Below, in pieces: positions 95-45,790 of a stretch of DNA of 64,000 nt. The DNA comes from Raillietiella orientalis. Taxonomy: Eukaryota. The notes below the pieces were generated by a model that was not told where the DNA came from, did no database searches, and saw nothing but the letters and a program-made list of their open reading frames with translations. The stretch lies in contig JAYWIR010000005.1 in NCBI GenBank assembly GCA_036172245.1, positions 1,116,001 through 1,180,000 on the forward strand, in the 5' to 3' direction. The translations under genes were made by a program, and so were the position numbers. The number at the start of each line of letters is the position of its first letter. The stretch's first letter is position 1.

Positions 95-610
95 TACTAC
101 GTGCTGACTGAGCTCTACATGTTCGACGGCCGCTGCAGGATATCGCGCTCACCTACGCACACTGCTTCGGGCATCGTTCACACCCCTTGCCCCAGTGCTG
201 CCCTTGAAAGACTCAAGGGACAGCGGCCTTCCAGCAAGGTAGGAGGTGTCTTGCTGCATTGCGGGAAGAAAGAAATCGCCAAGTGAGTGGACAACTCGGC
301 AGATCACGAGCGCAGCGACTCGAGTGTCCTCGACTGTCACTCTGAGGTGAGCTTGCTCTGATCCCTCTGGAGGAGATGAGGCAGCCTTCAGTGTTCTGGA
401 GCAGTGCTACCCTCCCCCTAGAGTGGCAGGAGTCGGCGATCCTTCTGTTGTATTGGGGTCTCCCATGCAACTCCCGCCGACGTCATTAGACACGAGTTGT
501 GTGTGGACCCAAACTGTACAAGGTGCAGGAGGGGAAATATCTCCCGCACTTCCTAGTGGGCTGTGACCCCTTTCCCCCGTGGGAACTCTCTCCCGTATCC
601 CTCCGGATCC
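95..610 (+). mobile_element. L1/Tx1-like LINE, decayed ORF2 C-terminal fragment
   Basis: Homologous by eye to 39860-40320 and 4441-4670 (TxQITDAAT, LPLxWQE and zinc-knuckle region). Confidence 0.75.
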
Positions 611-614
611 CCGA

Positions 615-1938
615 TTTTCACCCGGGTCGTAGGGGTGTTTATTTAAAACAAACTCTCAACACGCTCTGTGGCTGGACCTATCCAGGATCCAGCCACGCCC
701 GAAGAAACAACACAGAGCCTGCCGGGCCACCGGTTCGCAGACCGGTACGGTCCACCACGGCAGCAGGGGGGAAGGGGGAAAGATAAAAAACTAAACAAAA
801 AGAAAACAAAAAGTGGGAGGGTACGGGAAGGGATCACAGTAGCTGCTGGGGCCGCTGCATCCTTCGCAGGATGCCGGCAAGCTCTTCCTGAATGTTTGGA
901 TCCAGGTGGGGCCATCGCGTCGTCCACTCCAAAAATTCGTCGGTGCGCTGAATGGCACCCTTATCACGAGGACCTCCTCCCGCAGCCTTGCTCCAAGCGG
1001 CGACGATCCCGCGAAGGCAGCACAGGGCTGCTAACGAGGCCGCAGGCCGAAGGGCTTCGGCAACGAAGAGGGCTTTTATAGCGTCCCTGCGGTTGCCGCC
1101 GGGGATTCCGATGACCGCCGCAAAGCGTAGTCAAAGGGACCGAAGGGCAACACAATCCACAAGGAGGTGGGGGAGGGACTCCCGTTCCCCACACCTAACG
1201 CAATTTGGGTTCACCGCTCCCCAGGTCCAATGGTGTCGGCGGGCGTTGCACGGGAGTCCCCAGTGCTGCAACAGTAGAGCCGACTCCTGCCATTTTAAGG
1301 GGAGGGTGGAGGTGTTCATGAGCACCGGGGGCCACTTCAGACGTTCAATGGGAACATCGAGCAGCGCGCCCCAGCGCAGAAGTCCATGGGGAGGCGTACT
1401 CGGGGTCGCAGCGTCCGTTAGCTGGCCCGTCTTCCACTCTCCTATCTTCCTCTCCCTTCCGGAGATTGTAACTGTAACCTCCCACTTCACCGCAACATCG
1501 CTGTCCAGATCTTCCACTAGGGAGGCCAGCGCAGCAGCGAGGGGGATTCTTCCTGCCCACGCTCTCTTCTTTGGATCCTCCAGGATCTCTCGGAGCGTGC
1601 AACTTTTATAGCTCCCAAACAGGAACCGTCGTTCCTGTTGGGCGCGTGGCATGCCGCTCTGTGCCCACGTGCGAACGGTTTCCTGCAACCAGGCACTATC
1701 GTTCGCGGGGCGACAGGTGATCCATCCTTGATTTTCCCGAATCAAGGCTGCCACCCTCCGTAGCTGGAGCCCACATCGGTTGATGCGGGAGCGATGGAGT
1801 GAAAGAAAGGACGTGAGCCCCGTCTTGCCGGTGGCTTTCTTGACGAGGAGACGTTCAGGGACGCACCAGCAGGTGCTCCACAACTCCGGCACAAAGGCCA
1901 TCAAACGGAACCGAAATGAAATGAAAGGCCATCACGCC
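615..1938 (-). mobile_element. L1/Tx1-like LINE 3' fragment (ORF2 C-terminus with CCHC knuckle plus 3' UTR)
   Basis: ORF 1131..1904 contains CVRCGERESLPHLLVDC. The AATAAA plus terminal hairpin lies at 615-645. Bases 688-1903 are near-identical to 36301-37516. Confidence 0.9.
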
Positions 1939-2503
1939 TCCAAGCATTCGACTGCGTCGACCAGAATCTCCTGTTGGAGCTTCTAGAACGCTTGGGCTTC
2001 TTGGCCTCATTAGTGGCCTATCTGTACTCCAGTTGGCGCGACGCGATCATCAACCTTTCTTTGAGCAGGCACACTGCGCCCGCTTCGGCCAGCGGCCTCG
2101 TTAGAAGCCTTGTGCTGCCTTCGAGGGATCGCCGTCGCATGGAGCACGGCTAAAGGAGGACCACGCGACAAGGGTGCCATCCAGGGCGCCGCCCGATTCC
2201 TGAGGAGGGCGTCGAGATGGCCCCACCTAGATCCTCAAATGCAGCAAGAGCTTGCCGGCATCCTGCGAAGGATGCAGCAGCCCCAGCAGCAACTGTGATC
2301 CCTTCCCGTACCCTCTCACTTTTTCTTTTCTTTTTGTTTATTTTTTTTTTTTTCCCCCTTCCCCCTGCTGCCGTGGTGGACCGAACCGGTGACCAGGCAG
2401 GTTCTGTGTTTCTTCGTGCGTGGCTGGAGCATTGGTCCAGCCACTGCACGTCTTTGTAAAAGTTTATTTTTCAATAAACGCCCCGGCGAAATCCGGGTGA
2501 AAA
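1939..2503 (+). mobile_element. L1/Tx1-like LINE, internally deleted (RT KAFD segment joined to the 3' end)
   Basis: 1939-2072 encodes SK-AFDCVDQNLLLELLERLGF. 2073-2503 is the ORF2 end (LCCLRGI...ELAGILRRMQ, stop at 2298) and a 3' UTR with AATAAA at 2473. Confidence 0.85.
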
Positions 2504-3009: not shown

Positions 3010-3911
3010 TCGCGTCTTATCTTCTGTGTTCCGGCCAGAAGATACGAAGATGCGGCCTGCTCCTTGGACACATGTCCACCTTGGCACCTTGGTCTGCAGC
3101 CTCGCCAACTCCTCTGCATGGCTGGAGGAGACCGCTGGCAAGTGGGCGAAGATAAATGAGAAGAACCACGAGACGTGGAACTGCCTGCGAGTCGGCTTCT
3201 ACTCCCGCCGCACTCTGCGTGAAATTCTTGAATTTCCCGCCAGTTGCACGTGGGCGGAAGGGACTCCCCTTGCTACGGCGATGCCCTTCCTTGCTACGGG
3301 ACGCGGGGAAGAGTAAACCCTGAGTGTGCCAGGTGTGGGGAGCGGCAATCCCTCCCCACCTCATAGTTGACTGCCCTGCCCACCGGAATCTGTGGGAACG
3401 TCTCGGAACGTCCCTTGGGATACCGGTTAGCGGCAATCCCAGAAGAGTTTACAGTCTTCTCTTCGTGCGGGAAGCCATGAGGCCAGCCGCAGCCCTGGCA
3501 CACTTTGCTGAATCCGTGGTATTGTGGCGGCTGGAGTGAAGCCGAAGATGAAGATTCCATCGTAACGGACGTCATCCCGTATGCTGTTCGCTTTCTGCAG
3601 AGAGCTACCGGATGGCGCCAGCTGGGTAGACTGAGGGAGAGGGAGGACCTCGAGGGCATCCTGCAAAGGATGGACCCTCCTCCCAGTGGGCAGTGATCCT
3701 TTCCCTTCCCTCCAAAATCTCTTTTTTCTTTCGGTTATTGTTTTATTTTTCTTTTTGTTTTTTCCCCCTTGCCCTTCCACTGCCGAGGAGAGTCACGCCG
3801 GTCTGCGTCCCGGCAGGTCCTGGGAAATGTTGGCCGTTAGTGGGGCCTTGTACCACGTAATGTATTGACGATTGAAAAGTTTTAATAAACGTCCCGGCGT
3901 ACCCGGGTGGC
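3010..3911 (+). mobile_element. 5'-truncated L1/Tx1-like LINE with a 13-bp target-site duplication
   Basis: CTCGTCGAGGCCG occurs at 2997-3009 and 3912-3924. The start is homologous to 38822 onward. It contains CQVWGAAIPPHLIVDC and has AATAAA at 3884 plus the terminal hairpin. Confidence 0.88.
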
Positions 3912-4169: not shown

Positions 4170-4432
4170 CGCTCCGGATCCCCTAGGACGCCCTCCAGCA
4201 CGGCTCCAGTGCCCTCTTCTTCCTCCGGTGACCCCTTCCCGGACCTTTCAATTTCTTGCAGATACATTTTTTTGTTTCCCTCCCCCTTTGCTGCCGAGGC
4301 GAACCTCGCCGGCCTGTACGCCAGTTCTTATCAGGTTCCCATGGTCACATTTGTAACGTGGCGGGACCAAGAGTCCTGCCATTGAATTGTATGTTTATAT
4401 TATATAAATAAATGCCCTGGAGCAACCCGGTG
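4170..4432 (+). mobile_element. Short LINE 3' end
   Basis: GTGACCCCTT stop context, T-rich tract, both internal hairpins, AATAAA at 4407 and terminal hairpin. Confidence 0.75.
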
Positions 4433-4440
4433 TCAACCAG

Positions 4441-5388
4441 GCAAGGTGGAAGTGTCCTGCTGCATTGCAGGAAGAAAGAGGTCACCAAGTATGTGGACAA
4501 TTCGGCAGATCACGGACGCTGCGACCCCGAGTATGGGGTTTCGCCCCATGGACTTCTACGCTCGACATCCCTTTGGAGGAGGTGAAGTGGCTTCCAGAGT
4601 GCTGGAACAGTGGTGTCCTCCCCCTCAAGTGGCAGGAGTTGGCTTTGGAGGTGGTGCATGGGGGAATCCATGAACCACCGGTAAGGCTGCAAGGCCGACG
4701 CACTGCCTCCAGCCGCATCACTCGCAGGACTCCGCTGTCTTCTGCGTAATCGTGGCGGCCTGGAAAGCGGGAAGAGGAGGCCGGAATGGCAGGGACGCAA
4801 TCCACCGGGCGCGGATCTTCCCGAAGACCGCCTCGAGATGGCCCCACTTGGAAGAAGAAATAACAAAACTTGTCAGCATCCTGTACAGGATGCGGAAGAC
4901 GTCTCGCGGCGAGACGTGATCCATTACCTCAAAACTTTTCCTCCCCCTTTTTTTGTTTTTGTTTTGCGGTTTTCCCTCCCCCTTTGTGTCTGGAGCGGAC
5001 CCCGCCGGTCTCCCTACCGGTGACCGGCAAGTTGGACGCGGAAAAAGTCGGGACCGAAGAGGCCCGCGAGCAGGGAGACGCTCGCCATATTGTGAACCTG
5101 GTACTTGGAGACGCGGTTCAGGAACCCGAAGAAGTACTTCAGGGCGTTGTAGTTGATGACGGGCATGGAGCCCAGGAGGGCGCGCAGCCTCATGATGAAG
5201 AGCACGTGGTTGGCGCAGCAATCTGCAAAGGCGGAGGCGGCAGGTCAAGTCGACGGGAAGGGACGGTGCGTCCGAGGTACTTTTCTAAATGGCCACGAAG
5301 GTGGCGTTCAAGACGGGTGGGATGATCATTCGTATGTCCTTTTATTACTATTTTAATAATAAATACCCCAGCACAACCAGGCGAAAAA
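4441..5388 (+). mobile_element. LINE 3' fragment carrying the captured FAM13 piece in its 3' UTR
   Basis: ORF2 end at 4441-4919, hairpin 1 at 5004-5021, FAM13 insert at 5036-5325, AATAAA at 5358 and a degenerate terminal hairpin. Confidence 0.8.
5036..5325 (-). pseudogene. Duplicated exon-intron-exon fragment of the FAM13 RhoGAP domain, embedded in a LINE 3' UTR
   Basis: Colinear with 15288-15583. It keeps the intron (5223-5280, 58 nt versus 63 nt) with GT/AG ends and has a TGG>TAG stop at 5287-5285. Confidence 0.92.
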
Positions 5389-6379: not shown

Positions 6380-6489
6380 GATGGATGGGACATGGACATT
6401 CAATGGGACACGCTGTGGCAGCTCCCGGTAAGAGAGTAAGGGGGTCCTTCTCACAAGGAGGCGTGCAGGTCCGCACCCGTGGGGTACTC

Positions 6490-7999: not shown

Positions 8000-8500
8000 G
8001 AGGCAATGAACCCCAAAACAACAGCAACAACAACGAAAAACAATAAAGACAAACAAACAAACAAAAGGGGCGTTTTTTTTTTCGGGGGAGATCGAGGACT
8101 GAGGTCACAGTTCGCTGCCCGGAGTCCTCTATATCCTGTCCAGGATGCTCGCAAGGTTGCTCCAGACGGTGCCCAGGGTAGCGCCATCTCGCGGCGATCC
8201 TCAGGAAGATTCCCGACCAGTGGATGGCGTCCCGTCTATCCTGGACTCTTCTTGTTACGTTACCGGCCAATGTCATCCCGCAAACGGTACAGCGGAGAGC
8301 TGCGAGGGACTCGGAGTGGCGTCACGCGCGAACAGACGTCTGAAAATATCCCTGGGACCGTCCGCCGGGATTCCAAGGGTCCTTGCTAGAAGATCCGAAA
8401 GAGGTTGGAGGACTGTACAATCTGGAAGCAGGTGTGTGAGGGTCCACCACTCCGCAGCCAGCTTCCGAGGGTCCAGTATTGAAGGGCAACTGGGCTGGTT
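8000..8500 (-). mobile_element. Decayed LINE 3' fragment
   Basis: LTHLLPDC..LGIPADGPRDIF, then the ORF2 end and a T-rich 3' UTR start. Confidence 0.75.
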
Positions 8501-8539
8501 CCATTTTTTTTTTTTTTTTTTTTTTTTTTCAGGACGTAG

Positions 8540-9058
8540 TTTTTGCACCTGGTTTAGCCGGGGCACCCATTATTAAAATAAAAACAAAAGTCAAATAAAT
8601 TACAATAATGCGGTAGAACACTGTTCTGGGACGTGCTTGGAACTTGCCAAGACCGGTACGCAGGCTGGCGAGGTCCGTTTCCGCGGCGACTAGAGAGGGA
8701 AAACCGAAAGAAAATAAAAGGAAGCAAACAAAAAGCAAAAAAGGAAGTTTTCTGGGGAGGAGGAGGGATCGAGGAGGGAATCACCTTTCGCTGGAAGACG
8801 TCCTCCGCATTCTGTCCAGGATGCCTACAGTTCCGCTCTTATTTCACCCAGGTGTGTCATCCCGAGGCGGTCTTCAAGAAGATTGTCGCCCAGCGGATGG
8901 CGACCCACCTTCACGTGTCCCAGGCTGTCACGGTTCCCCGGAAATAGCAGAGAGCTGCGAGGGACGCGGCACAGCGGCACGCACAAAGAGGCGTCGTAAA
9001 ATGCCCCTGGGGCCACCCGCCGGGATTCCTAGGATCGCCGAGAAGCGATCCCAAAAAG
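8540..9058 (-). mobile_element. LINE 3' fragment with complete terminus
   Basis: ORF2 end, hairpin 1, and terminal TGCCCCGGCTAAACCAGGTGCAAAAA on the minus strand. Confidence 0.8.
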
Positions 9059-16104: not shown

Positions 16105-19100
16105 TCTTCGAAACACGTCCAACAAAAGCGGGCAGCACAACCACTTATCCAACGTAAAAGAAACGAAACGTCCGTGTCACAGAAACCACGCTTGGGAGAC
16201 CTCTTTGTTTCCGAAAGATTAGCGCCGAGTTCGTGCGTGCATCGCCAGGATCACAAGAACCTCAGGGCACTAGGATTCAGCGTTCCCAAACAGCACAGAC
16301 AAAAAACTTCCTTTTCGAGGAGGAGTTGGCTGCCGATGCTGGTCGTGCTGAGACGCTGCCGAAGACTTTTTTGAAAACGGCGCAGGAAATTTTCTCTTAT
16401 GGCTGCTTCAGGGACCGCGTGGACACCAAACGTAACGTCAGCATTTAGCTCAAGAAAGGGGTCGTGACATCAAGGCTTTCCTGGAAGACAAGACACAGGG
16501 GAATGCGTCGTCCACGCTTCGGCGACGCAGAGGTTTATCTGGGACGCGGCGCCAGGTCACACTTCCCGGCAAGGCTGGCGCGCGCCCTCAAGCCGCTGAA
16601 GAGTCCAAAGCTTTCGCGAGGACCTCCATAAAAACGGGATGAGCTGCGTGCAGCGGCAGCGGCAGCAAACACGCCGAGAACAGGCAGACTAGCTCACCAC
16701 GACCGCACTGGAAAGTAGGCGACCCGAGGCGGACGACCCCCTTGCTCCGTGCTAGAAGCGCGATGCTTGTCGGAGGCTCTTTGGCTGAGCAAAGGGCTGA
16801 CCCGTGCAGGTCCCCCTTTCGCTTGCGCGACGACCCTGTTCTAGGCACTCCCCAAGCTCTCAACCCATTGTTTCCTTTCGTGAGCAGGATGTGCGAGGAG
16901 CGAAACGAAACGAAAGGTCACACGCACACTGAGACTCGAAACGGACCCCCAATTCAACACGAGGAATCAGTCGTCTCTCCGGCCGCTCTGGCAGTCGCGG
17001 AGACCTTTGCCCATCGGCGTTCCTCTCTCCAGAGCCCAGCAGTAGGACGCCTGCGAACCTCTCCTCTCATCCCACACGAGAATGACGAACCATCCCCCCA
17101 CGGAAGGCGGGAATGCGTGGCGGCCCGCTAACAAAGAAGAGAACTAAGAAAGTGGGGCTGTCTGCGACTCCCAAAACAGTCGGCGGGAGCAGACGGTAGA
17201 AACGGAAGGAACGCTGCAGAGCGGAACGCAGCGAGGAGAAGGGGACATTCCGAAAAACCGCCGCTCGTCGATGACCAACCACACATTTCGGATTGCCGAA
17301 GCCCCTGGACTCGAATTCCGTAGCAGTACCAGGATGGTAACCACGCCCCGGAGTAGAGAGGAGTTCTCACGCAGCTCCCAAAGGACTGCAAAGGGCGCCT
17401 CGCATCGGCGTGTCCGATCCCGGATGGTGTCTCTCGGGGAGTTTCGCTCGTCCCTGCGCGACGGCGGCCCACGCACTGCCAACCTACGAAAACGCCCGCG
17501 CCGAAATTGAACTGCGGGCTCTGGTCGCGCAGGAACCGTGCAGCGATGTCGCATCAGACGGTCGAAGGAACGGAAGGGATGCCCAGCCCTGCGTGGCACG
17601 CTAACGAAATCCAGGACACACGCCACCATCATCGGAGAGAATGGATCAGAAGTAGGCCAAAGACGGAAGGACGCACAGGACGTTTCCCCCTCCCTACACC
17701 TGATATCAGTAGCGGAAAGGTCTCCGAAGACGGCGGCATCGCGGTGTGCGGCGAGGCGTGAGAAAAGTATCCACAGCGAAGGGAAGGGGGGGGGGGGGAT
17801 CGCAACAGAGATGCGCTCAACATGCCAACGCGACATTCCGTCGTGATCTTCGCGTTCCTCCGAAAACAAAACAGAAGCCCAGAACAAAAGACACCTGAAA
17901 AATCCTCACGCTGCTGCTTCGTTTGGCGAACTAACCCACGAATCAAAGCAGCAGCATCTTCGAAGATGGATCTGCATCCGGGAAGCTTTTCTGCATCGAG
18001 CAAATCTCTCGAGACTCCGCGAAAAAGACCAACTGCGCCTGGGCAGCGAGAAGGTGGGTAAGCAGGGGCAGCGAGTCGGAAACGGACCATTCTCCGGGAA
18101 GGAAGAGTTTCACAGCTTCCACGTCGATTACGGACGGACGAGACCGACCACGAGGACTGCCGGGCGTGGCCGCCGGATCGTTCCAAGGAGGGCCGCACCA
18201 AGGAGACGTCACCCGAAGAGCAGTTCAGAACCGTGCGCTGATTATTTCCGCGCGTCCAGCTGTCCCGGCAGCCACCTCGCGGTGACACAATTTGCAGCGA
18301 TGCAAAGAACAAGAACAAATAATCGATGCGCGTGTTCTCTCTTCCTTTCTGGATTCTTTTTTTTTTTTCCTTTCTTCTTTGTCTTTTCTTTCGACAGCTG
18401 CGTCGACTCACCATGTTGCACATCACGAGCAGGACGGGTGGGTCAGGGCTGCCCTCTTGCTTCACGCATGCACGGCATCCGCGCCTCGGCCGCTCTCTTG
18501 AGAGACGGACCGGAATCTCTTCGGAAAGACTACGAGACGGACCTACGAGAAGCTCCTCCCCTCCCCAGCCTCTTCGCTTGGAAGATTCGGAGGGGAACCT
18601 CTGCGAGAGCGCGGTCCTCTCTCGAATAGGTTCGTTGCTTCGCCGCTGCTGGAGACAAGCGTCCGGGGTTCACGAGTGCGCACGTCCGAGCACGCGTCCG
18701 CCGCAGGAGCAGTAAATCCGGCTGCATCGCAAATGCGTGGCCGGCGCTCCATCCGAGAGCGTGAAACCAGCGAACAACAGCTCGGGAGAGAGAGAGACAG
18801 AGAGGGGGGGCACCCAGGTCCTCAGGAGGGTGTTTCCTCCTTGCTTAACGGTCCCTACTGCATGAATAAAAATGATAACCTATGACGCGCCGGCAGGGTT
18901 ACCATCCGCTCGTTTCCGCAACTTTCGCGTTTCGCGGGCGGAAAGCCTGTGGACCGCGGCGGCGACCGACGGAAGAATTCCGGCACGTGGGAGCGGAGGA
19001 AACCCCCAAAGCACGAACGTCCAGCGAAACGCGAGGCATCCTGGAAGCGAAATCGGACAGAGGGAAAAACCGAACGGCTGCAGAGGACCGGACGAACCCC

Positions 19101-28479: not shown

Positions 28480-28840
28480 CATGGAGCTGGACCCCTGAAG
28501 GGGTCGTCCCTCCAGAGTGTTAAGAAATGCGCAGCTCCCTTCGGGGAGGCGCCCTTCAGGGAAATTGGGAAGCGTCCCTTCGGGATTCTCTTCAGAGGAA
28601 GAAACGGGGAGCGAATCTTTTCCTCTGGAAAAATAAGGAAGAGGTTCCCTTCAAGGTTCCCCTCCCAAGCTTAAGAGGAAGTGGCTCCTTCCTTCTGTGG
28701 GGCCTTCCTGGATTCCACAGGGTGGTGCCCCCGGGATCATCTCCTAACTTGAAGAGTGACACGCACCCTCGCGTAGCGTTAAAAAGCTTTGTGAGCTTCC
28801 CCTAAGGAGGCGAACGGTTCTTCAGTACTTGGCGAACCCC
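28480..28840. repeat. Dispersed hairpin-rich repeat, copy 1
   Basis: Colinear with the reverse complement of 45355-45750. Shared blocks include AGTGTyAAGAA, GCTCCCTTCGGG, TCCCAAGCkTAAGAGGAA, CTTGAAGAGTGA and AGGCGAACGGTyCTTC. Confidence 0.75.
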
Positions 28841-31329
28841 AAAAAAAAGACCTCCCTCCCCCTCTCCCCCCCCCCCAAGAAAAAAAAACACGTACACGAC
28901 CGTGTAGGGAACACGGCCGGTTACGTCCGAGACGACCAGCTCCGAGTGTGCAAAACTCAGTTGCCGTGCGCGCACTTTGGTTGGCTGTCAGGCTGCAAAG
29001 AAACTGTGATTTACGGAATCCTGCTAGAGCATGTGCACTCCGTATTCCGAAACGTGTGTACGTTTCGTGCGCGCAGTACACGTGTGCTCATGAAAATTAT
29101 AAGGCAGACTGCAAAATGTCCTGAAGCCAAAAAAACAACAACAAAATGACTGCCGTGAATATACAAATCACGCTTACACGAGTTAAAAAAACCACACACA
29201 CACACACACACACATTTATCATTCTATATGTACCAATTTATGCTTATGTCCATGTACACGTACATGTGATCATAAAATTTCGTCGCACCGTGCGTACAAT
29301 CAAAGGAGCCACAACAGCAATACATCACAGATTGCACGTGCACGGGTATGCATGGACGATGACGACCTCTGACCGGGGGACAGGCGCATACATGATGATA
29401 GCATACGCACTCCAAACACAGCCAGGCATAACTGCTGTGTTACACGACACCCACCCACCCACGTACACACTTGCAAAACAGAATTTACAAGTTTTCAAAA
29501 GTTTGGAGTGAACGAAATCGCTTACTGCGGCTCCTGCGGAGAAAACTTTTGGCCCCCGGGCACGTACGAAGCAACAGATGAGAAATTTTGCGATAGAATC
29601 GTATCGGGCCGGTTGGTGCACAAGCAAAAAGCTCCTCGTGGCGGTAGCCACCGTGACGTTACACTCTTGGAGGGGCACTCCACCCTCGCCGGTGCATGCG
29701 CAGACCGATTCCTCCCGGGAATCTCGCTGACCTCTGGTATGCCAAATTAAAAGCTCCTCCCCCCTTGCTCACAAACTTTTTTTTTTTTGCCCTACTCCGA
29801 GCTCTCGTCCTCCCCCAGTCTCCTCCCCTACCAGTCGCACTCTTTGCGCTCTTGAGAAATACCTTCACCTCCCCTACGGGTTGTCTCTCTCATCCCGGGC
29901 TGCTCTTGTTTCACCCCGCCGATTCTCCTCGCGCCACCCTCTTTTTTTCTGACTTTTTTTTTTTTAAGCCTACTGAACCGAAAGCCGCGTGCTACCTGCG
30001 CCGGAAGCTGTGCTATTGGAACGTTCGAGAAGTTGACAAATTTTCTCCGTGGAAACCCCTGCTTTGGCCAATAAGCTTCGCGATTTCAGGAAAGCAAATC
30101 AAAATGGACGCGCCCTCCGAAGAGCGCACGCGGTTGCACTTGTTGAGTCTGCGGAAGCGAAAGTGGCGCGGCCGATGACTGTCGCGGCGGGATGGTGCCC
30201 CAAAGTGGAGCGACCAGGAGGAGCAAAGGAGGTGGTGGCGAATCCCGGCCGGGCTGCAGAAGGTCATCGTGCCGCGCCCTGCCATCGGGAAAGACATTAG
30301 CGAAACCGCGAACTCGAAGAGAGGGAGGATTTCGGGCGGACGAACGAAACATCCCTCTTCCCGACCGCATCAACGCGCAGGGACTCTTCCCGTCGCTCCC
30401 TTCTGCCCGCCACGACCGGCAGAGGTTAACCTCGGCGTTCACGTCACTCAGCCAGCGGGGGTATGGGAAGTTGCCTGCCGCTACACGACACCAGACCCTC
30501 CGCTCACCCCAATCTGGGAAGGCGATGGCTTCCCAAGCCCCGTTCTCCCAAGGAGTGGCACTGCCCCCTCTCTTCCCCCTCGTCATGCATGCGATGATAA
30601 GGATAACGGCGTACGGGCGAAGGGGGAACGCACGTTCCCAGGAGGACCACGCGATCTCCTCCCCGACGGAGGAGTCGTGAGCAACAGCAAGGGGGAGAGG
30701 CAGTGAAGAAGACATGGTCTTTCTTCCTGAGGCAGTGGGAGTTCCGGAGTAGGCCGAAAGGACTGCTTCTTACCCTCGATCCCTTCGAGAACACCAGCGT
30801 GCAGGTTCCCTGGTGAGGAAGAGGAGGAAATTTCCTCTGCGCCTGTGCCTCCTCCGGGCGAAAGCCGGGGAACGCCCGCTCTGGGGAGTGCGGCCACCGC
30901 AGAGGGTGCATCGCCCGTTCTCATCGCGGCCTTCGCTCGGGGGGCGCATCTTAGCGCCCTGGGGAACAAGGACTTCCATTTCCCGATTCGCTGGGTCCCG
31001 GGATTCACAAAGACGGCGAGAAAGCCGGCGGTCTGCCCCTCCCCATGTGGCGAAGAGCAACGCCGGAATGTCACGGATTTTCCACGAAGATTCTGAGACC
31101 GCCGATCTCGCTCGTTGCGATAGTGATGATAATCAGTGTGCGGTGATTGACTGACAGCAATGACGATTACTGTGGGCTACGCATCGAAATCGAAAATCCC
31201 CACGCTTGGACAGGTCACCACCCACTGGGGCGGTGACGTCACTACCGTGACCTTCATTCTTTCCGGTATTGCCACACTCTGAATCATCGCAGCCTGGGCG
31301 ATTTACATAAGGTGCTGAATTTATAGGTC

Positions 31330-32256
31330 CATCCCCCATCTCTCATCCTACTTCGCCCCCTTCCGTACCTCCCAGTGGCATCCCTTAGGGAACACATGGA
31401 CAGCAGCCTTATGAGTAGATGGGAGGTTACTATGGGAATCTCCGGAAGGAGGAAAGGGCTGGGCGAGTGGACGACGGACCAGCTTACGGACGCTGAGACC
31501 GCAATCGCTCGGCCTCGTGGACTTTTGCGCTGGAGCGTGCTACTGGGTATTCCGGAGGAAGGCCTGCAGTGGCCCCGCATCCGGACCCTCCCCTGAAAGT
31601 GGCAGGGACCGGAGTTGATGCTGCTGCACTGGGACCTCCAGTGCAACGCCCGCCGACATCATTGGACACGAGTGAGTGTGGACCCAAACTGTGCAAGGTG
31701 CAAGAGGGGAATCCCTCCCACACCTGCTCCTGGATTGTGTTGCCCGAACGCTTTGCCGCGTCCCTGCGGAACCTCGAGGGCAACCCCAGGAACGTTCTGA
31801 AGCGCGTCATCCTGCGCGGCGCCTTCACGCCGGCCACGTCCCTAGCATCACTTTGCTGCCTACGTGGCGGGACCGTGGCTTCATGGAGCAGCAACGCCAA
31901 AGGAGACCAGGACGACATGGACGCCATCTATTCTACTTCATGAGAACAGTATCAAGATGACGCAATCTGGGAGTCTTGAAACAGGAAATTGCCGGCATCC
32001 TTACAAGGATGCAGGGGACGCCTTCCAGCATCCAGTGATCCCTTCTCGAAGCCTCCCAATTTTCTGATTGTATGTTTTTTGTTTTATTTTTTTTGTCTCC
32101 CCTTCCCCTGTGCTGCCAAGGCGAACCCCACTGGCCTGCGTGCCAGTTCCCGGCAGGTTCCTCCTCGTAGTTATACGTAATGTGGGGCAGGATCAGATGT
32201 CCTGCCACAGATGCGTATGTTTATTTTATAAATAAACGCCCCGGCGTGACCGGGTG
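31330..32256 (+). mobile_element. L1/Tx1-like LINE 3' fragment
   Basis: RWEVTMGISGRRKGLGEWTTDQLTDA, DPNCARCKRG/ESLPHLLLDC, ASLCCLRGG, and a full structured 3' UTR with AATAAA at 32231. Confidence 0.88.
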
Positions 32257-35200
32257 TTAACCAGCGGCATCAGCGTATGATGCTTTAACCCTCGATGGTC
32301 CAAGTTCTTTTCTCTGTTCCGTCCACACCTTTCTTACGGCTTCTCCGAGGGCTGCCTCGCGCTCCCGCAGGGAATGCGGCATCTCGTGTGCTGACCCATG
32401 CTTCCGCCCCCTTCGCCTTACAGCCTCCCTTTCTCACAGTCCCCAACCTCCTCTGTGCCCCATATGCCCACCCTACACACTGGAGCCATTTTCGGACGTC
32501 TCGCGGCCACGGACTTCCTGTACTGGACTTCGCCTCGTGCGGAGGATCGCGTCATCTTGTCCTTCGATGCCTCCGGTGTTGTTACGGTTTCCGCCCGCCT
32601 AACGTGACTCCAGCAAGGTCCGTAGCACCGGCAAACTACGGTTCTTTGGGGGGAGGACTTTGACAGCAGTTCTTCTGAAGAAGAGCGGCTCACCACCCGG
32701 AAACGAACCACGATTGTCGGTGCTTTACGCCGTCGGTTCGGGAGCCCTTCGGAGCTCCGGAGGGGTTCCCTGGAGTCCACCCGAGAGCCCAGCCGTACTG
32801 CCGCAGCCACGGCATGGAGAAGCCATCGGGTGGTGATCTCCGAGTGCCCCTGATCTTGGAATCTTTGCTTCTCCTGGTGTCTCTTTCCAGGAACAGCTTC
32901 AGGGCACCACCCTCCCTTTTTCTCCAACAGACATTTACTGCTTCCCTTCATCCGACTGCAAAAAGGTTGTTCTGATATCTTCTCTCGGTGCTTTCGCTTC
33001 GGAGGGGAACCCACCCATGTACTTGGCTACATATTTTTTTTTTCCTTTCATATATGTACATATATATGCTTTTTAGGCCTTCTGTTTTTCTGCCGAGCAC
33101 GCTGGTCTCTCCGCTTTTGCCGTCACTTCCTTTTGAAGCGGTTTGCATTGCTTTGCACCGGGCAATCTTGAGATTTTCCTTCGCAAAAGAGTATGCCGTG
33201 TCTTGTTGCAGAGGAGCAATCTTTCTGTCAGCGTGCCGATTTCTCCATCTCCTTGTGAAGATTCCCGACTCTTTCTCATTCCTCCCGTCCCCCTTCACCT
33301 TACACGCACCACCTTTCCCTCGTTTCGAGTGATTATTTAACCTGGTCTTTCATTGCCCGCAGTTTCGGTTTACAACGCGCATTCCGTCCGAGGTAGTGGG
33401 CCATTACATCGGAAGGGTATTTATAACTTCAAAAAACTCTCGCCAGGGATCGCTGCTCAGCAATAACAGGACTGCCGTTAAATAAATGATTCACTGCGTG
33501 CTATTTTAGCTTGGTGGTTTTTTAGAATCATTGCGCTTTCATACACACTGTGTAGGGAACATAAATACATCCGCACGTCACGAAACCAACATAAACGTGA
33601 AATCGAAAAGCAGCAAACGAGGCAAAGCAGAGCGAATGAAAAGCCCCTCCTCAAAAAAAGAGGCAAGGAAAAAAATTCATCCCCCGAAAAGATGCGAGAA
33701 AGAGAATAGCTGCTGCTTCGGATGCACCAGCACAACGTGAGGACCGGAAGAGACCGCGGAGCGAGCGCGCACCATCGTTGTCCTTGCGGGCGGAGCGGGA
33801 GAGCGCGTGCCGCCATGTTGGAGTCGTTCAGCTTCCCGTCTGCATTTGCGAATCGACAGGAGGCGACGGGTAATAGCAACCCTCTGGAACGAGGACGCAG
33901 TGAAGAACCCGGAATGAAAACCGGATGAGGAAACCCCCCCGCAGCAGCAGCGGATCGCCTAACCACGCCTCGCCAGACACCTTGGGGATCACACGAATTC
34001 GACGGTTGTGTGCTTTTCTTGCCCTCCCCTCCCCGTGTGATCTCACCGGACCTTAGCGAAAACGAGGATGTGGCGACGGAAGACCACGGTCTGCCTTCCA
34101 GGCAGAGATAGCTAGCTCCTCCCCTGCGCAAAGAGGAGACCACTTGCCCGGTAACGATCCAGTAACATGCCGCGCGAGGTAAACACCCCCGGCGATTTTC
34201 GGTAATGACTGATGCTCCGCGCATCTCGAACGTAAACATCAGGGATGCCAGAGTACTTTCCTCGCGGGGCGAAGAAGGTTCGCTGGCTTGGCAGCAGAGC
34301 GCAAGTGCAAATTCGAACGGGTAGCGTCGCCTGAATGTTTAATACCTCGAAGATGGATGCCTAATCACTCCTGGGAGTTGCCTTTACACATTGCAGTTTT
34401 ATGGCCCTTTTATCGCCGTTTACGCCCGGGACATCCGCAACTTTCCCCACCGCCAGTCACATTCCCTGAACAGGGAACCAGAGTTCGCATGTGGCGCAGC
34501 GCGGGACGATGATGGACGAGGAAAGGGATCGGCACAGGGTGAATACCGAGAAGAGCTGACGACGTTTCCCGCTGGGGCTGGGTGGGGTGGGTGGGGGGGA
34601 AGCCCGCGACCTCCCAAAGCCGCCGTTCCCGCCGACCGTCGACTGCCTGACTGTGCATCCCGCATCGAAGCGCGCGGCGGCTTCGTCCGAGAACCGTTGA
34701 GGAACAGACGGCAGCAGTCGGGCTGCATATGAAATCAGAAGATCCTCGTTTCGACATGCAGACACACTGACTGGGCTGCCCTCCCCGTCCCCGGAAGTAG
34801 GCCATGTCCGTCCCTGTTGATTTCAAAAAGGACAGACATCAAAGCGGCTTCCGGTCCGGTGCGCGCCGCATCTCAATTGCGGACCGCTCGCTCTCCTGAT
34901 CTTGGCGATCTACTGCCGACACCTCCCTGTACTCCTCTGCCCCGCAGCTGTTGATGGGGCGGCTCGATGCACTTGCTCGCCCCGCGGCGCTCGTCTCGCA
35001 TACGTATGAGCTGGTAACCCGTCGTGACGTCACCGGTGCTTCCTGGCACTGCGGAAAAGGAGACAGACAAGGCAGAAACCGCTCGCGAGGTCGGGCGGCA
35101 CACGTGGGCGGGTCGCTCGGAGTCCGTGCGCGCAAGAGAGGTGCGCAGCGGCGTTGCGCGCACACGCCACCGTGCGTCGACCGGCGAAGGGGGGCGACGC

Positions 35201-36225
35201 GAGCGTTCCGCCGTCCGGCGATCGCACCGCTCGCTGACGGATCGAAACCGCCCATTCCGTTGGGGGCAACTCCACCACCTGGATAGGCGCTCTGCAAATG
35301 CTGAGGTTGAACGCCAACGTGCGCTTGGCAACGCGTTGCCGGGGTTTAGCGTGTTCTCAGACGGTGAACACCACGCGGCGTGCTTGCGCCATACGCGCCG
35401 CATACGCTTGAAGCATTACTCGTGGACGCGCCGCCGCGTCCCAGTAAGCGCTCCGGAAGCCATGCGACGGAAGAAGCGTTTTTGTTGTTGCCCCCCCCCC
35501 CTTCCTTCCTTCCGTCCCGACCCCACGGGCCGGAGGGATTCGTTGGGAACGTCGAAACTGAAAGTTTCGCTCCGCCGTCTGCGGAGGCGGTGGCGCAGCG
35601 TGAAAGCGAGCTCAGATAGTGGCGGCGGCAGTATGGGCGCGCGTTTTGTGCTCACGGATCACGGCGTGGTAGATAACCGCAGCCCCCGGCCTCCCCCAAT
35701 GACTTGACGTCACGAGCGCTGGAAACGGCCTCCTCGCAGCGCAAAAGTCGATCCCTATCGTACGCGGAGGCGGTTTCCGCCCTCCCCCCCCCCGCTGCTC
35801 TCCGAAACATCCCGTATCGGGCCCGGGTGGGAGACAGCATCGAGGGTGTGTTTGGGGAACGAAGGAAAGGAAAGATCCGAACGCAGCGCATCTCTGGCAC
35901 CCAAGCGCTGATCCCCTCGCGAGAAATTTCGCCCTTCTCGACGGGGCGGGCGTTCCGCGAAACAGCGGCGTGGACCTTCGACAAGCCGCCAGCACGGCGC
36001 GGAGTAGGGAGCGTGCACGCGCAAAGTCGAGAACCTCTCTTTCTCTTGCAGACGGGGGATTTCCCGCGCTCGCGAACGATTTTCCCTTCTGCTGTTTCTT
36101 GCCCTTCCCCCCTCCCCCATCCCCGCGGGTTGCCATGGCATCTGGCGCTGTAAACGATCGGAGCCTCGATCCACATCGATGGCGCACACGAAACGCGAGT
36201 CTCCTTCACCCGTCCAAGCATTCGA

Positions 36226-37914
36226 TTTTCACCCGGGTTTCGCCGGGGCGTTCATTAAAAAATAAACCTTGACAAAGACGTGCTGTGGCTGGACCAATGC
36301 TCCAGCCACGCCCGAAGAAACAACACAGAGCCTGCCGGGCCACCGGTTCGCAGACCGGTACGGTCCACCACGGCAGCAGGGGGGAAGGGGGAAAGATAAA
36401 AAACTAAACAAAAAGAAAACAAAAAGTGGGAGGGTACGGGAAGGGATCACAGTAGCTGCTGGGGCCGCTGCATCCTTCGCAGGATGCCGGCAAGCTCTTC
36501 CTGAATGTTTGGATCCAGGTGGGGCCATCGCGTCGTCCACTCCAAAAATTCGTCGGTGCGCTGAATGGCACCCTTATCACGAGGACCTCCTCCCGCAGCC
36601 TTGCTCCAAGCGGCGACGATCCCGCGAAGGCAGCACAGGGCTGCTAACGAGGCCGCAGGCCGAAGGGCTTCGGCAACGAAGAGGGCTTTTATAGCGTCCC
36701 TGCGGTTGCCGCCGGGGATTCCGATGACCGCCGCAAAGCGTAGTCAAAGGGACCGAAGGGCAACACAATCCACAAGGAGGTGGGGGAGGGACTCCCGTTC
36801 CCCACACCTAACGCAATTTGGGTTCACCGCTCCCCAGGTCCAATGGTGTCGGCGGGCGTTGCACGGGAGTCCCCAGTGCTGCAACAGTAGAGCCGACTCC
36901 TGCCATTTTAAGGGGAGGGTGGAGGTGTTCATGAGCACCGGGGGCCACTTCAGACGTTCAATGGGAACATCGAGCAGCGCGCCCCAGCGCAGAAGTCCAT
37001 GGGGAGGCGTACTCGGGGTCGCAGCGTCCGTTAGCTGGCCCGTCTTCCACTCTCCTATCTTCCTCTCCCTTCCGGAGATTGTAACTGTAACCTCCCACTT
37101 CACCGCAACATCGCTGTCCAGATCTTCCACTAGGGAGGCCAGCGCAGCAGCGAGGGGGATTCTTCCTGCCCACGCTCTCTTCTTTGGATCCTCCAGGATC
37201 TCTCGGAGCGTGCAACTTTTATAGCTCCCAAACAGGAACCGTCGTTCCTGTTGGGCGCGTGGCATGCCGCTCTGTGCCCACGTGCGAACGGTTTCCTGCA
37301 ACCAGGCACTATCGTTCGCGGGGCGACAGGTGATCCATCCTTGATTTTCCCGAATCAAGGCTGCCACCCTCCGTAGCTGGAGCCCACATCGGTTGATGCG
37401 GGAGCGATGGAGTGAAAGAAAGGACGTGAGCCCCGTCTTGCCGGTGGCTTTCTTGACGAGGAGACGTTCAGGGACGCACCAGCAGGTGCTCCACAACTCC
37501 AGCACAAAGGCCATCATCCTGAACTGGAGCTGAAGCTCCAGCCGCTCCAGTCAAGAGCACGAGACCGTCGTCCTGACGCGGAGCGCACAAGTCCTTTAAG
37601 CGGACTCGGGCCCTCCCGTTGCCCCAAAGGGCGATACGGAGGAGGTCCTTTGTCCGCTTTTTAATCCTCTCTGTGGGGGGGCAAACAAAAAGCAGGGGGC
37701 GGAGGAGAGGAGCCGCGAACGTGTTCCAAACCGCGGTCCGTTCCGGCAGGAAAAACCTGCCGCCTTGGAACGGGCCGATCGTCGTCTCTACTTTTTGGAG
37801 GCAGCGCGACCACTCTTCCACAGGGGAATAGTCCCCAACGGCACACCAAGGTACTTGAAGTACCTCACCGTGGGGATCCCCAAGCGGACCCAGTCCTGCT
37901 GCCCTGCCCACGCC
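36226..37914 (-). mobile_element. Least-decayed 5'-truncated L1/Tx1-like LINE with a 13-bp target-site duplication
   Basis: TCCAAGCATTCGA occurs at 36213-36225 and 37915-37927. ORFs 37468..37923 and 36744..37517 cover the RT C-terminus to the CCHC knuckle with few lesions. The 3' terminus is complete. Confidence 0.92.
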
Positions 37915-39180
37915 TCCAAGCATTCGACTGCGTCCACCAGGATCTTCTGGAACTCCTAGAACGCATGGACTTCCCGGCCGCCTTAGAGGCCTACCTGCGC
38001 GCCTGCTGGCGCAATGCGATAATCACCGTTTCTTTCAGAGGACAAAACGTGTTCGGCGTGAAGGTAAGGCGCGGCATCCGGTAGGGCGACAGTCTGAGTC
38101 CCCTGCTCTTTAGCACCTATTTCGAACTGGTGCTGAGAGCATACAGGGTGACATTGACTGCCCTGCCGAGCTCGTGCCCAGGTACGCCGGCCGTGTCGGC
38201 GTTTGTTGACGATCTTCTGCTCCTGCTTCTCATGTCCGCGCCGGCTTCGGCAGTCGAGCATTTCTTTGACTTGCTGAGCTGCGAGACAGGACTACGGGTG
38301 AACAGGACGAAGTCGTCGCTGGTAGCGGTTGGTGCAACGTGGTCAGGACGACCTGATTGGATCCGCCTGGGGATCCCCACGGATAGGTACTTGAAGTACC
38401 TCAGCGTTCCGTTGGGGGACTTCTGCCAGTCAGAAGCCTGGTCAGGTCGTCTCCAGAAAGTGGAGTCGGCGATCGCCCGTTCCTGGAAGGCAAGTTTCAC
38501 TTGCCGGAACGGGCCGTGGTGTGGAACGCGTTTGCGGCTTCCCTCCTTCGCCCCCTGCTTTTTGTTTGCCCCGTACCCCGTGAGATCAAAAAGAGAACGA
38601 AGAACCTCCTGCGCATCGCCCTGTGGGGCGGCGGGAGGCCTCGTGTGCCTCTGGAGGATTTGTGCGCTCCACGTCGGGACGGAGGTCTTAGCGTCCTGAC
38701 GCTGGAGCGCGTGGAAATACAGCTGCAGTGGCGTACCTTGGCCATCGCGGCGAAGATGTGGAGCACCCCTTGGTGCGTTCCGCCCGCCTCCTCGTCAGGT
38801 GTGTGTCCGGGACCGAAGGACTCGCATCTTTTCTTCTGTGCCCCGGCTGAAAAATAAGAAGATGAGGCCTTCTCCTGGGACGCATGACCACCCTGGCAAA
38901 GGGGAACAGGTGGATGGCCTGCAGCCCCGCCAACTCCAGCGCATGGCTGGAAGAAACAGTTGGCACGTGGGCGAAGTTAAACCAGCCTAGTGGAGAATCC
39001 TGCAACCGCCTGAGCACCGGCATCTACACCCGCTGCACGCTGCGGAACATGATCGAGTGTCCGCCAGAAGCACTTGGGCGGCGACGACCCCACTGGCCAC
39101 GGCGCTTCCCGGGTCCACCCCGGCGTCTGCACTCGAGGATTTCTTCGAGTTGCTACGCCGCGGGACGAGCCTGGAGCGAA
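37915..39180 (+). mobile_element. L1/Tx1-like LINE reverse transcriptase core, decayed
   Basis: SK-AFDCVHQ, VRRGIR*GDSLSPLLF, SAFVDD (the YADD position), GLRVNRTKS, YLKYLSVPLG, LEDLCAPRRDGGL. Confidence 0.92.
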
Positions 39181-39189
39181 GGAATGAAA

Positions 39190-40865
39190 CAGGGTGAACA
39201 GGGCGAAGTCGTCCATCGTTTATGTCGACTCGGCGTGGGCTGGACGGCCGGACTGGATCCGCTTCAAGCACCTTGGCGTTCCGTCGGAGGACTTCTGCGC
39301 CGCAGAAGTCTGGTCCGACCGTCTCCAGAAGGCAACGTTGGCGATCGGCCCGTTCCATGAAGGTAAGTTTTCCTTGGGCCCCCTTCCTTCTCCCCCTGCT
39401 TTTTGTTTGCCCCTCCCTTCCCATCGTTCCAAAGCGAGCAGCGGGTTTCCTGGGGACAGCCCTGTGGGGCAAAGGAAGGTCCCGCGTGCGGTTAAAAGAC
39501 TTTTACGCTCCAAGTAGGGACGGTGAACTGGGCCTCCTTACGTTGGAGCGCATGGAACTTCAGCTTAGCTTGCGGACTCTCACCCTTGCGGCCGAACTTT
39601 GGAATACGCCCTGGTGCGTCCCAGCACGCCTCTTAGCCCAACGAGCCTCAGGCTTCGGCGGACTCTCGTCGTTCCTTGTGACGCGCGACTGCAGGCTTAC
39701 GCACTGCAGGCCTCAGCTGCGTCTCATGGCCGTTGTGGTTTGGGAGAACGCCTGGATCTCCTGCCTCCCAGCCAACCGCTCCGCATGGCTGCGGGAGTCA
39801 GTTTCGACGTGGGAAAAGATCCAGTCCCGAGCGGTACAAAAAACACTTGCTTTCGAAGGCACGCTTGCTGGACGCTGCAGGAGATCGTGCAATTCCATGA
39901 CAAGCTGCTGTGGGCTTTGATTACCCCCTTGCCCCAGTGCTGTCCTCCCTGGTGAACTCTAGGGACAGCAACGTGGAAAGTGGAAAGTGTCCTGAGTATC
40001 ATTGACGGCAGGGCCCAACCGATCAAGGAGTCGGCATCTCGGCGGCTAGCGGACGCTGCGACCCCGAGTGTCCCGTCCAACGGACTTTTACGCTGGTGCG
40101 AGCTACACGCATTACCTCAGAGGAGAAGAAGTGGCCCCCAGCGTCTTGGAACAGTGGCTCCCTCCCCATGAAGTGGCAGGATGTGGCGTTGCTCGTCTTG
40201 CATTGAGGACTCCCGTGAAAAGCACACTTCACTCACTGGACATGTGGAAGTGTGGATGCCCTTTGTGACCGCTGCGGAGAGAAAGAGACTTTCCCGCACC
40301 TTCTCGTAGGCATTGCCCTCCGTCCCCGCTGGAATCGTCTTGAGACGGTCCTGAACATTGGTGGAGGCGACCACAGGGACATTTTCAGGCACCTCATCTC
40401 GCGTGCTGTCCTGCCTCCGGCCGAGTCTGTAGCAGTGCTGTGCTGCAATCGCGGAATCGTGGAGGCATGGAACGTGTCCAGAAGAGCACAGAATGGCAGG
40501 GATGCCATCCATTGAACTCTCATCTTCGTGCGAAATGTATCCAGGTGGCCCCACCTGGGCGCAAGCAGGACACAGCTTACTAGGATTCGGAACAGAATCT
40601 AAAGGACCGATTTGCGCGCAGTGTGATCCCTTCCCCTCCCTCCCCACCCCTAGACATTTGTCTACTCCCCACGTTTCACTTTTTGTTTCTTTTTGTTTAC
40701 TTTATTCCTACCCTCGCGCGTTGGATGGACCTCGCCGGTCTTTGCACCGGCAACCAGCAAGCTGTTGTGACGTGGTGAGCCCTTGGGTTCACCACGAGAA
40801 AATGTATTTTCTATGAATTAATAGTATTTTTATTTTCATAAATAAATGCCCCGGCATATCCGGTG
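39190..40865 (+). mobile_element. Second tandem L1/Tx1-like LINE, 5'-truncated, with complete 3' terminus
   Basis: Restarts at RVNRAKSS, then FKHLGVP and CDRCGEKETFPHLLVG. AATAAA at 40841 plus terminal hairpin. Confidence 0.9.
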
Positions 40866-44260: not shown

Positions 44261-45354
44261 CCGCCACCGCCATCTCTAGAACAACGTGCATACCCTCCGA
44301 GGAGTGAGCATGCTCCTTTTTTCGACCCCAACGGAGGCTTCCGATGCAGAATTTACCAATTTCAGGCAAGAATTTAGAATTGGGGCGCGTGAATAGAATG
44401 TACTAAATGTACTGTTTTCCGTTCGTGCCATGTGAGAATCCTTCCAAGCCTATGCACCTTAAGGCAGGCTATTTGCAGCCCGTAAAGCACAAGGTGCCCC
44501 AAAGATCTTTGCTACCATGGTGTTCTTTTGGACAAATTATACGTAAAAACGGAATCGAAGGGCCATTGTGAACATAATTTTTTTAATCCTCTCAAATGCA
44601 TCTCCATGTGTGAATTTAGATGCTTGCCCAAATGGGAACGTGTGGTAGGCGCTCGTGTTCCGCGTTATACGAGCCTTGTGGGTTATCCGTGAATAATAGC
44701 ATAGCACTTATGAAAGATACGAATGCATCTCAAACTGTAAGCTATTTAGTATTTCACTTTAAAAGCAAAAGTGAAAAAGATTAAGAGTGCTTATTTCATA
44801 TTGCAATTAATGTAAACGATTCAATCGTTTCAGCTCTATCGATCTCGTAGAAAAAAAATGCACCTCGCGGCATTTTATTTATGAAAATTTGAATTCAACC
44901 TGTTCAAATCACGCGTTCACGTGTTTTTTTTTTTTTTTAAAGATAAAACTTCACAGACACTTGACTACGAAATTCCAGTTTATCCAGAGTGTAGTAGTGG
45001 TGGTACAGCGCGTTATACCAGCGTGGTCGCCATTGCTTCGTCGCATCAGAGACTCCGCGTTATACGGGGGCCTGCTGTGCGTACACATTGGTGTGTGTGC
45101 GTGCGTCTTTTTCAGAGTGTTTTCCCTGGTCCTTACGTGGTGTTCCGACAAAGAGAGGTGTTGCTGTGTGTAGCGCGCGCGCGTCCCGCCTCGAAAAGGA
45201 TCAGCACAGTCCACAAATGCGTACCCTACTGACAAAAAGGAAGAACAAGGCTCGAGATTTGGGAATTCGTATCCCTGGAAAGAATAGGTTCGTGAAGATC
45301 AGGTTTATCCCGGGACTCCGTGCGCTCCATCCCGGCGGCGGGGTTTGCTTTTTC

Positions 45355-45790
45355 TCGGTTCGCGAAGCACTCGAAGGACCGTTCGCCTAGGAGCTCTTTC
45401 GAACTCCAGCCGAGCGGTATCACTCTTCAAGGATGGGGGTAACCCGGGAGGGGACCGAACCATGGATCCAGGGAGGACTCCGGAGGGAGGGAGTCCGTTC
45501 CTCTTACGCTTGGGACGGAAACCCCGAAGGGAACCTCCGCCGTGGTTGTCTCCGAAGGGACTCAGAAGGAAATCTCTTCCTCTTTCCCTCCGGGACGACC
45601 CCCGGAGGTGGCTCTTCCTTTCTTGTCCGAAGGGAACCCGGAAAGGATCCGCTCCTGGTTTCCTCCTCTGGGAAGGGAGCCCGAAGGGAGCAGCGCCGCT
45701 TCTTGACACTGCAGAGGTGACCCCCCGAGGGGGGTATCAACGGCTCCCTTTTCACAAACCCAGAGGGGAACCCTGAAGGTCCCCGTGATT
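45355..45790. repeat. Dispersed hairpin-rich repeat, copy 2 (inverted relative to copy 1)
   Basis: Same shared blocks as copy 1; many CCGAAGG units. Confidence 0.75.

Follow-up and report, generated by a model that had tools for sequence, protein, structure and literature searches.

Two nested LINE junctions in Raillietiella orientalis hint at antisense self-targeting of reverse-transcriptase motif A

Tx1L of Xenopus is a long interspersed nuclear element (LINE) of the Tx1 type that uses the DNA transposon Tx1D as its specific target. The LINE Zepp forms nested clusters, one per chromosome and GC-rich (PMC3446292). Preferential insertion into own copies is reported for CNL1 of Cryptococcus neoformans (PMC12810828). 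For SART1Bm and R1Bm, base pairing between the nicked strand and a short target-like sequence at the 3′ end of the RNA may determine where reverse transcription begins (PMC7265360). Here we describe a LINE family in a stretch of 64,000 nt from Raillietiella orientalis (contig JAYWIR010000005.1, positions 1,116,001 to 1,180,000; hereafter the window). Two of its copies lie antisense directly after the same base of the codons for motif A of the reverse transcriptase (RT) in sibling copies. The window has 57% G+C and contains no N, and all counts given below are confined to it.

The locus resembles each of these systems in part. As with Zepp and the Zepp-like (ZeppL) L1 LINEs of green algae, the copies form dense nests, here of at least 14 mostly 3′-end fragments; Zepp arrays are described as tandem in PMC3446292, whereas here entry is antisense and at the RT motif-A codons. 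CNL1 is related to R2 and MoTeR, lies in subtelomeric arrays and has a sequence specificity stated to be undefined (PMC12810828), whereas the present family is L1/Tx1-like and enters the RT gene antisense at a specific base. Like R1Bm, SART1Bm and R2, the family shows insertion at one precise base of a multicopy target. Those elements, however, target rDNA or telomeric repeats with nearly all copies in the target; here two of nine termini are so placed, the target lies in the coding sequence of the family itself, and we infer the pairing. A mobile element as target is shared with Tx1L, but the target of Tx1L is a different kind of element and not its own RT gene. Zepp and CNL1 are precedents for LINEs that target their own copies; any novelty would lie in the site, namely the element's own motif-A codons in antisense. 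We found no report of a defined motif-A site or of antisense entry in a literature search that was not exhaustive and did not cover the original Zepp papers.

Decayed, 5′-truncated copies of the family fill 1–9.1 kb and 36.2–40.9 kb of the window, with one more at 31.4–32.3 kb. The fragments in the nests are named A, D, F/B (or FB), C, H, X, Q, M, K, N, O, R, S, P, P2 and G. As a ruler for residue numbering we use P0001, the one real relative of the 268-residue open reading frame (ORF) of copy A (two matches among 1.84 billion representative proteins). P0001 has 619 residues and an uninterrupted RT carrying PF00078; its source is a metagenome contig of 2870 bp, and its KAFD, in motif A, begins at residue 231. 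Fragment P is 69% identical to it over residues 231–418 (E 6e-74) and extends about 120 residues beyond the RT core, which supports an RT domain in the family.

The first of the two insertions is copy A, in the following setting.

36213..36225, plus strand: left 13-bp duplication TCCAAGCATTCGA, which would be the primer side of the A insertion
36226..37914, minus strand: copy A, a 5′-truncated LINE, from residue 372 (at 37913) to its 3′ end ...CCCGGGTGAAAA at 36226
37915..39063, plus strand: P, a decayed RT fragment that begins at the right TCCAAGCATTCGA, with QAFD at P0001 residue 231
39078..40865, plus strand: P2, a second LINE copy, from residue ~326 to its 3′ end ...ATCCGGTG, followed by ATAATCTAAGGC

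The initial annotation, made from the sequence alone, had placed a 13-bp duplication around a minus-strand copy, and this holds: TCCAAGCATTCGA is present in perfect form at 36213–36225 and 37915–37927, directly at the ends of A. It had also read the duplicated codons as SKAFD and let a plus-strand RT resume after A. The frame is instead TC-CAA-GCA-TTC-GA, or (L)QAFD, and the RT of P starts there (residue 231 at nt 37917), with no RT left of 36213. Searches of that side for RT residues 1–230 gave no match, either by tblastn with P0001 (E ≤ 10) or with 38 distant LINE proteins (E ≤ 0.01). As a candidate hidden LINE, the left flank of A yielded nucleotide alignments no better than those of shuffles, and BLAST found no second copy of it in the window. 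Copy A itself carries one frameshift near 37549 and one in-frame stop (36744–36746). It overlaps P by about 240 residues (372 to ~610), at 74% nucleotide identity.

The second insertion is FB, at the left end of the window.

171..614, plus strand: F, the C-terminal part of FB, colinear with B apart from a 45-nt gap in the element sequence
2083..2503, plus strand: B, the 3′ part of FB, ending ...TCCGGGTGAAAA
2504..3009, minus strand: H, an RT fragment covering residues ~55 to 234 and ending ...AATGCATTCGA (NAFD) exactly at the 3′ end of FB
3010..3911, plus strand: copy C, of another subfamily, with 3′ end ...CCCGGGTG and no A run, antisense in H near residue 55

As first annotated, the 3′ end of FB at 2503 abuts a minus-strand RT: TCGAATGC comes next, and the minus strand reads ...GGSLTHNAFD, cut at the same base as at A. 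H aligns with P0001 residues 52–222 at 3017–2523, which puts its AFD at most 2 residues from the predicted place. The inserts FB and A are 82–92% alike; identity between B and A is 84% across 440 nt and rises to 92% in the last 90 nt. Copy C does lie antisense in H with its own 13-bp target-site duplication, an exact CTCGTCGAGGCCG at 2997–3009 and 3912–3924; no RT homology of H is detectable on the far side of copy C.

A and FB both stand directly after GCATTCGA of RT motif A, antisense and in different hosts (n = 2). Common to both KAFD junctions is TCGAATGC, the exact reverse complement of GCA-TTC-GA. Independent events were to be told from copies of a single one by their 5′ truncations and hosts, and here the two differ: A is truncated at residue 372 and FB at about C-terminal residue 128, and the host reads TCCAA at one and ATAAT at the other. 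Since inserts, 5′ ends and host bases all differ, we count A and FB as two events. Between the hosts H and P, 4 of the 5 bases before GCATTCGA differ, against 0 of the 8 within it. Past the 8-mer the flanks are unrelated (3 of 14 matches by eye), and the likeness of A to FB stops exactly 8 nt past the element. An 8/8 match of two random flanks has a probability of 4^-8, or ~5e-4 over 36 pairs by our own arithmetic.

Each of the three RT fragments in the window that extend to motif A is interrupted precisely at that point: P and X begin at TCCAAGCATTCGA, and H ends at GCATTCGA. Three of the four well-defined nick sites end in CGA. Were the 8 nt borne by FB, it is unlikely that H would be broken by chance within 8 nt of its own AFD. 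In addition, the duplication at A takes in TCCAA, which is host sequence and absent from FB. A preference of the family for its own relatives, as suggested in the initial annotation, finds partial support in two 3′ junctions that agree in base and in relative orientation; a general preference for its own ORF2 is not seen, with two of nine termini in the window. Two nested junctions hint at self-targeting; one 64-kb window cannot show a family habit.

The 3′ ends of the copies bear on how the site might be chosen. A 3′-end profile built from five termini gave 11 matches at E < 1e-6 and two weaker ones. Nine copies have intact 3′ termini, all ending ...CC(C/G)GGTG, after which they continue as follows.

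Copy A: AAAATCGAATGCTTGGA
Copy B: AAAATCGAATGCATTAT
Copy D: AAAATCGGGGATCC
Copy P2: ATAATCTAAGGC
Copy G: TTAACCAG
Copy Q: TCAACCAG
Copy C: GCCTCGTCGAGG
Copy O: 16 nt (CAAAAACTACGTCCTG), then A26
Copy S: GACCTGGAATCGG

Among the nine termini compared, A, B and D share the terminal GGGTGAAAATCG (AAAATCG), and A and B also share AAAATCGAATGC. The last 90 nt of A, B and D are 78–92% alike and hold the same four A's, so that the A run is templated and not a poly(A) tail. The true end of the RNA probably lies beyond this run, and the TCG, perhaps TCGAATGC too, may belong to the element. As GGGTGAAAATCG ends all three copies, the shared TCGAATGC may be carried on the RNA and base-pair with the target at the nick. 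That transcripts do extend past GGTG is shown by the 16 nt and A26 that follow the terminus of O. The other copies concerned are listed here.

31418..32256, plus strand: copy G, with 3′ end ...ACCGGGTG, then TTAACCAG; no LINE homology was found in its flank
4204..4432, plus strand: copy Q, 3′ untranslated region (UTR) only, ending ...CCCGGTG, then TCAACCAG, then M
4441-5041, plus strand: copy M, 5′-truncated
8546..9047, minus strand: copy O, with 3′ end ...ACCAGGTG, then 16 nt and A26, then R
8443-8018, minus strand: copy R

By their flanks, the nine termini fall into two at motif A (A and FB), two antisense elsewhere in a LINE (D in FB, C in H), two followed by a copy in the same orientation (Q by M, O by R), two without recognisable LINE (G and P2) and one at the window edge (S). 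The terminus of O with CAAAAACTACGTCCTG and A26 (8500–8546, minus strand) looks like a read-through transcript polyadenylated further downstream. Over their last 90 nt, G and Q are 63% alike, with a common 3′ flank, T[T/C]AACCAG (32257–32264 and 4433–4440), and GGAACCAG comes after the A run of O; this would be a second subfamily-specific 3′ signature or a target. With this pair, subfamily-specific 3′ signatures recur. A search for target duplications of G and Q found no shared word of at least 7 nt.

From the sequence we propose that the A/B/D subfamily started target-primed reverse transcription at least twice at a nick after GCATTCGA of a sibling's RT motif A, a proposition that we hold to be evenly balanced between right and wrong. 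The setting is a nest of 5′-truncated, decayed copies of one L1/Tx1-like LINE family, and the nick would lie on the sense strand of the sibling's A-F-D codons. A nick on that strand of a sibling RT forces the insertion to be antisense. The site might be chosen in either of two ways. The endonuclease may prefer ...CGA^ (GCATTCGA^CTGCG), or a 3′ extension of the RNA, UCGAAUGC, derived from read-through of an earlier nest, may pair with the nicked strand; with such a tail, transcripts would end ...GGGUGAAAAUCGAAUGC, beyond GGGUGAAAA. Pairing by an RNA tail seems to us likelier than an endonuclease preference. A stronger form, in which the subfamily acquired an RNA tail antisense to its own motif-A codons at an ancestral landing and is guided by it back to the same base, is put forward tentatively and seems to us rather doubtful. 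The preference for motif A is partial, and other copies of the family sit elsewhere.

The start of P exactly at the duplication calls for an account of its own, and there are three candidates. P may be a 5′-truncated copy that ends there by coincidence, at roughly 1 in 1000; the locus may be a retrotransposed composite with 13 nt of read-through; or a staggered break at the site may have been repaired. The flanking duplication that a composite would predict was not found: up to 43 kb, the left flank of A is not duplicated rightward, and just the 13-mer recurs. A ribozyme or RNA gene that would set the TCCAAGC boundary finds no support; the window holds no Rfam match at the gathering threshold and no tRNA gene.

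Within FB lies a third junction of the same appearance.

615..1903, minus strand: copy D, antisense in FB, without duplication
1904..1938, no strand given: unassigned 35 nt, holding a second copy of AAAGGCCATCA
1939..2080, plus strand: X, an RT piece covering residues 231 to ~278, which begins with TCCAAGCATTCGA

This copy had been described as joining a KAFD site, though perhaps by copying from A. The copying finds support, as D 688–1903 equals A 36302–37516 (minus strand) with 1 mismatch in ~1215 nt. A 3′ junction of D at KAFD does not: its 3′ flank, TCGGGGATCC, is the C-terminal region of another plus-strand copy, away from KAFD. Identity between D and A falls abruptly to ~70% in the last 73–76 nt of D, where A resembles B, and D 615–687 comes from an older, diverged element ending GGGTGAAAATCG. 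The identical A/D block would be a recent gene conversion tract, a duplication or an assembly effect, and judged by this block D is not an independent insertion event.

The 1.47-kb block between F and B consists of D (minus), 35 nt and X (plus), which is what one inserted head-to-head unit would leave. The 35 nt at 1904–1938 could be the 5′ end of D itself (p 0.06), FB sequence (p 0.04–0.07) or repair filler. X and P are only ~78% identical overall, yet 26 nt (CACGCC, the 13-mer and CTGCGTC) are identical at both loci, which is why we take the D/X junction to be copied from one of the A/P type. In the mechanism that we favour, the D locus would be secondary: a head-to-head unit, made of a minus copy and a plus QAFD piece, would have been copied into FB, and gene conversion would later have made the body of D uniform with A, provided that the identical block does not stem from the assembly. 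The left flanks of A and D, tried as homologues, did not align above shuffles, nor did a plus-strand KAFD-like stretch at 113–150. A C-terminal stretch of the element, GCCGAAGCCCTTCGGCCTGCGG (36650–36675, minus strand), resembles the motif-A site GCCTCCAAGCATTCGACTGCG (37909–37934), and the X piece lies in FB exactly at the C-terminal stretch with this resemblance. Another head-to-head pair is found within 6443–6511, where minus-strand K (from residue ~501) meets plus-strand N (from ~354).

Several observations weigh against return to motif A as the explanation. There are only two events, in a single window; residence in the motif-A target amounts to 2 of 9 intact termini, or 2 of 3 within the A/B/D subfamily, and D, of that same subfamily, has just TCG in common with the site. 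Both KAFD junctions have host RT on a single side: at the A locus its upstream half is absent, and at the FB locus its downstream half is absent or lies beyond the window. The start of P coincides with the start of the duplication, which would not be expected of a simple insertion into an ORF2. GCATTCGA occurs at three non-LINE places (24052 and 54666 on the plus strand, 11800 on the minus strand) without insertion. LINE adjoins LINE at six junctions, four of them antisense and two with both copies in one orientation, which gives no grounds for claiming an antisense bias. The 1215-nt block means DNA-level exchange or an assembly problem on these very copies, which makes counts of independent events shaky. 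No endonuclease domain was detected in any copy in the window. Finally, the idea of a tail stands on 3 to 4 termini, and the 9/12 resemblance of P2 comes from a copy that is 43–46% like A and B over the last 90 nt.

The alternative that survives best is a single old nest. One ancient antisense insertion into motif A would have spread by duplication, conversion, recombination between inverted copies and composite retrotransposition, with no site preference; every KAFD junction, FB/H among them, would descend from it. Homogenisation is indeed visible in A and D (1215 nt with 1 mismatch), a stretch of 26 nt is the same at A/P and D/X beside RT that is ~78% alike, and the last 90 nt of A are 92% like B. 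What remains of the RT in H is its upstream half and in P its downstream half, and the two look complementary. A DNA duplicate would bring its flank along, however, and the A/FB homology ends sharply 8 nt past the element; the hosts H and P have all 8 bases of GCATTCGA in common but 4 of the 5 preceding bases different, and the left flank of A is not RT. Moreover, only 3 nt separate AAAA from a new target at the 3′ end of D, a sign of retrotransposition rather than segmental copying. Altogether, we consider a single old nest unlikely.

Chance in a LINE graveyard would require TCGAATGC to be an element-borne 3′ extension that came to lie beside AFD codons by coincidence. Since 1–9.1 kb and 36.2–40.9 kb are nearly all LINE, insertions of LINE into LINE are expected; 7 of 9 termini lie away from the site, and G and Q carry subfamily 3′ signatures without any KAFD context. 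What makes coincidence quite improbable is that the frame of H enters ...NAFD at most 2 residues from the motif predicted by P0001, where a random break would fall at ~8 in several thousand positions, and that the duplication of A contains the host TCCAA, which is not in FB.

Head-to-head pieces of one LINE are also produced by L1 twin priming, or 5′ inversion, reportedly described by Ostertag and Kazazian in 2001. Twin priming in single insertions, with no nesting, would make such pairs, and three minus/plus head-to-head pairs are present in the window (A/P, D/X, and K/N near 6483–6511). D and X fit in part, with an inverted piece of residues 231–278 and a direct piece from ~490 to the end; the colinearity of F and B, which lack only 45 nt between them, is what a single insertion would leave, and the outer end of X has TTCGGC in common with FB. 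The arms of a twin-primed insertion, however, are contiguous and non-overlapping and lie inside one duplication. A and P overlap by ~240 residues while merely 74% alike, so they cannot derive from one RNA, and the duplication flanks A alone; the D and X pieces are ~210 residues apart and not contiguous. This explanation seems to us quite unlikely. Very unlikely, finally, is an assembly artefact, by which mis-joined or collapsed repeats would give chimeric junctions and the identical block: the 1215-nt block with 1 mismatch does have sharp edges inside copies otherwise 70–80% diverged, but the clean 13-bp duplication exactly at the ends of A, the RT reading frame kept across the FB/H junction and the 13-bp duplication of copy C itself are features that mis-joins do not produce.

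If return to motif A were true genome-wide, a LINE would gain sequence specificity with no need to evolve another DNA-binding domain; its RNA would have to carry only a few transduced bases at the 3′ end, and the family would use its own coding sequence as landing site. The origin of Zepp-like nests, perhaps of LINE-built centromeres, would be explained. Long sense/antisense inverted repeats would arise, a source of double-stranded RNA and rearrangement, and the family would carry a brake, each insertion removing the motif A of an RT. If the RNA tail is what guides it, the process would be a self-reinforcing 'homing by read-through', in which the family provides itself with a safe harbour, accumulates sense/antisense nests and eliminates the catalytic motif in every sibling struck. 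The present evidence consists of two junctions in one window, and general self-copy targeting has already been published for LINEs.

The affiliation of the family comes from several searches. The window copies show some hallmarks of an L1/Tx1-type element: a common 3′ end, differing 5′ ends and 13-bp duplications at A and C. Pfam models score below their cut-offs on the ORFs of the window: RVT_1 reaches E 0.0036 (17.5 bits; cut-off 29.6 bits), and zf-RVT (PF13966) reaches E 9e-4 (20.4 bits) on the ORF of A and E 3e-4 (21.9 bits) on that of D (cut-off 27.5 bits). The relatives of P0001, at most 30% identical to it, are L1/Tx1-like, many with a PF03372 endonuclease, RVT_1 and zf-RVT, and those at 26–30% identity carry PF13966. 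Its best named relatives are from ticks, a frog and teleost fishes, and an atlas row for a 'Transposon TX1' cluster scores 0.88; Tx1-clade membership of the family is suggested by this as only a lead. The 38 distant LINE proteins, several with PF03372, gave no match outside the RT region in the window at E ≤ 0.01; all copies here being 5′-truncated, this absence of an endonuclease is uninformative on the full element. A metagenome scan with the ORF of A gave three weak, unrelated loci (L001–L003), viral contigs contained no match to an 18-nt word of the 3′ UTR, and prokaryote genomes scanned with P0001 yielded one distant RT in a metagenome-assembled genome (L004).

Apart from the LINE family, the window contains 26 long open frames of 233–568 residues (in 7000–31000 and 41000–64000), which match no Pfam family at E ≤ 0.01. 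The longest, at 14547–16250 on the minus strand, is rich in Arg, Pro, Ala and Ser and looks GC-driven; no host gene was identified among the 26 frames. An unrelated 290-bp repeat occurs at 5036–5325 and 15288–15582 with 89% identity, and one of its copies truncates the 3′ UTRs of the LINE copies M and K. An inverted pair of ~200 bp, also outside the LINE family, lies at 28641–28846 and 45349–45537 with 70% identity.

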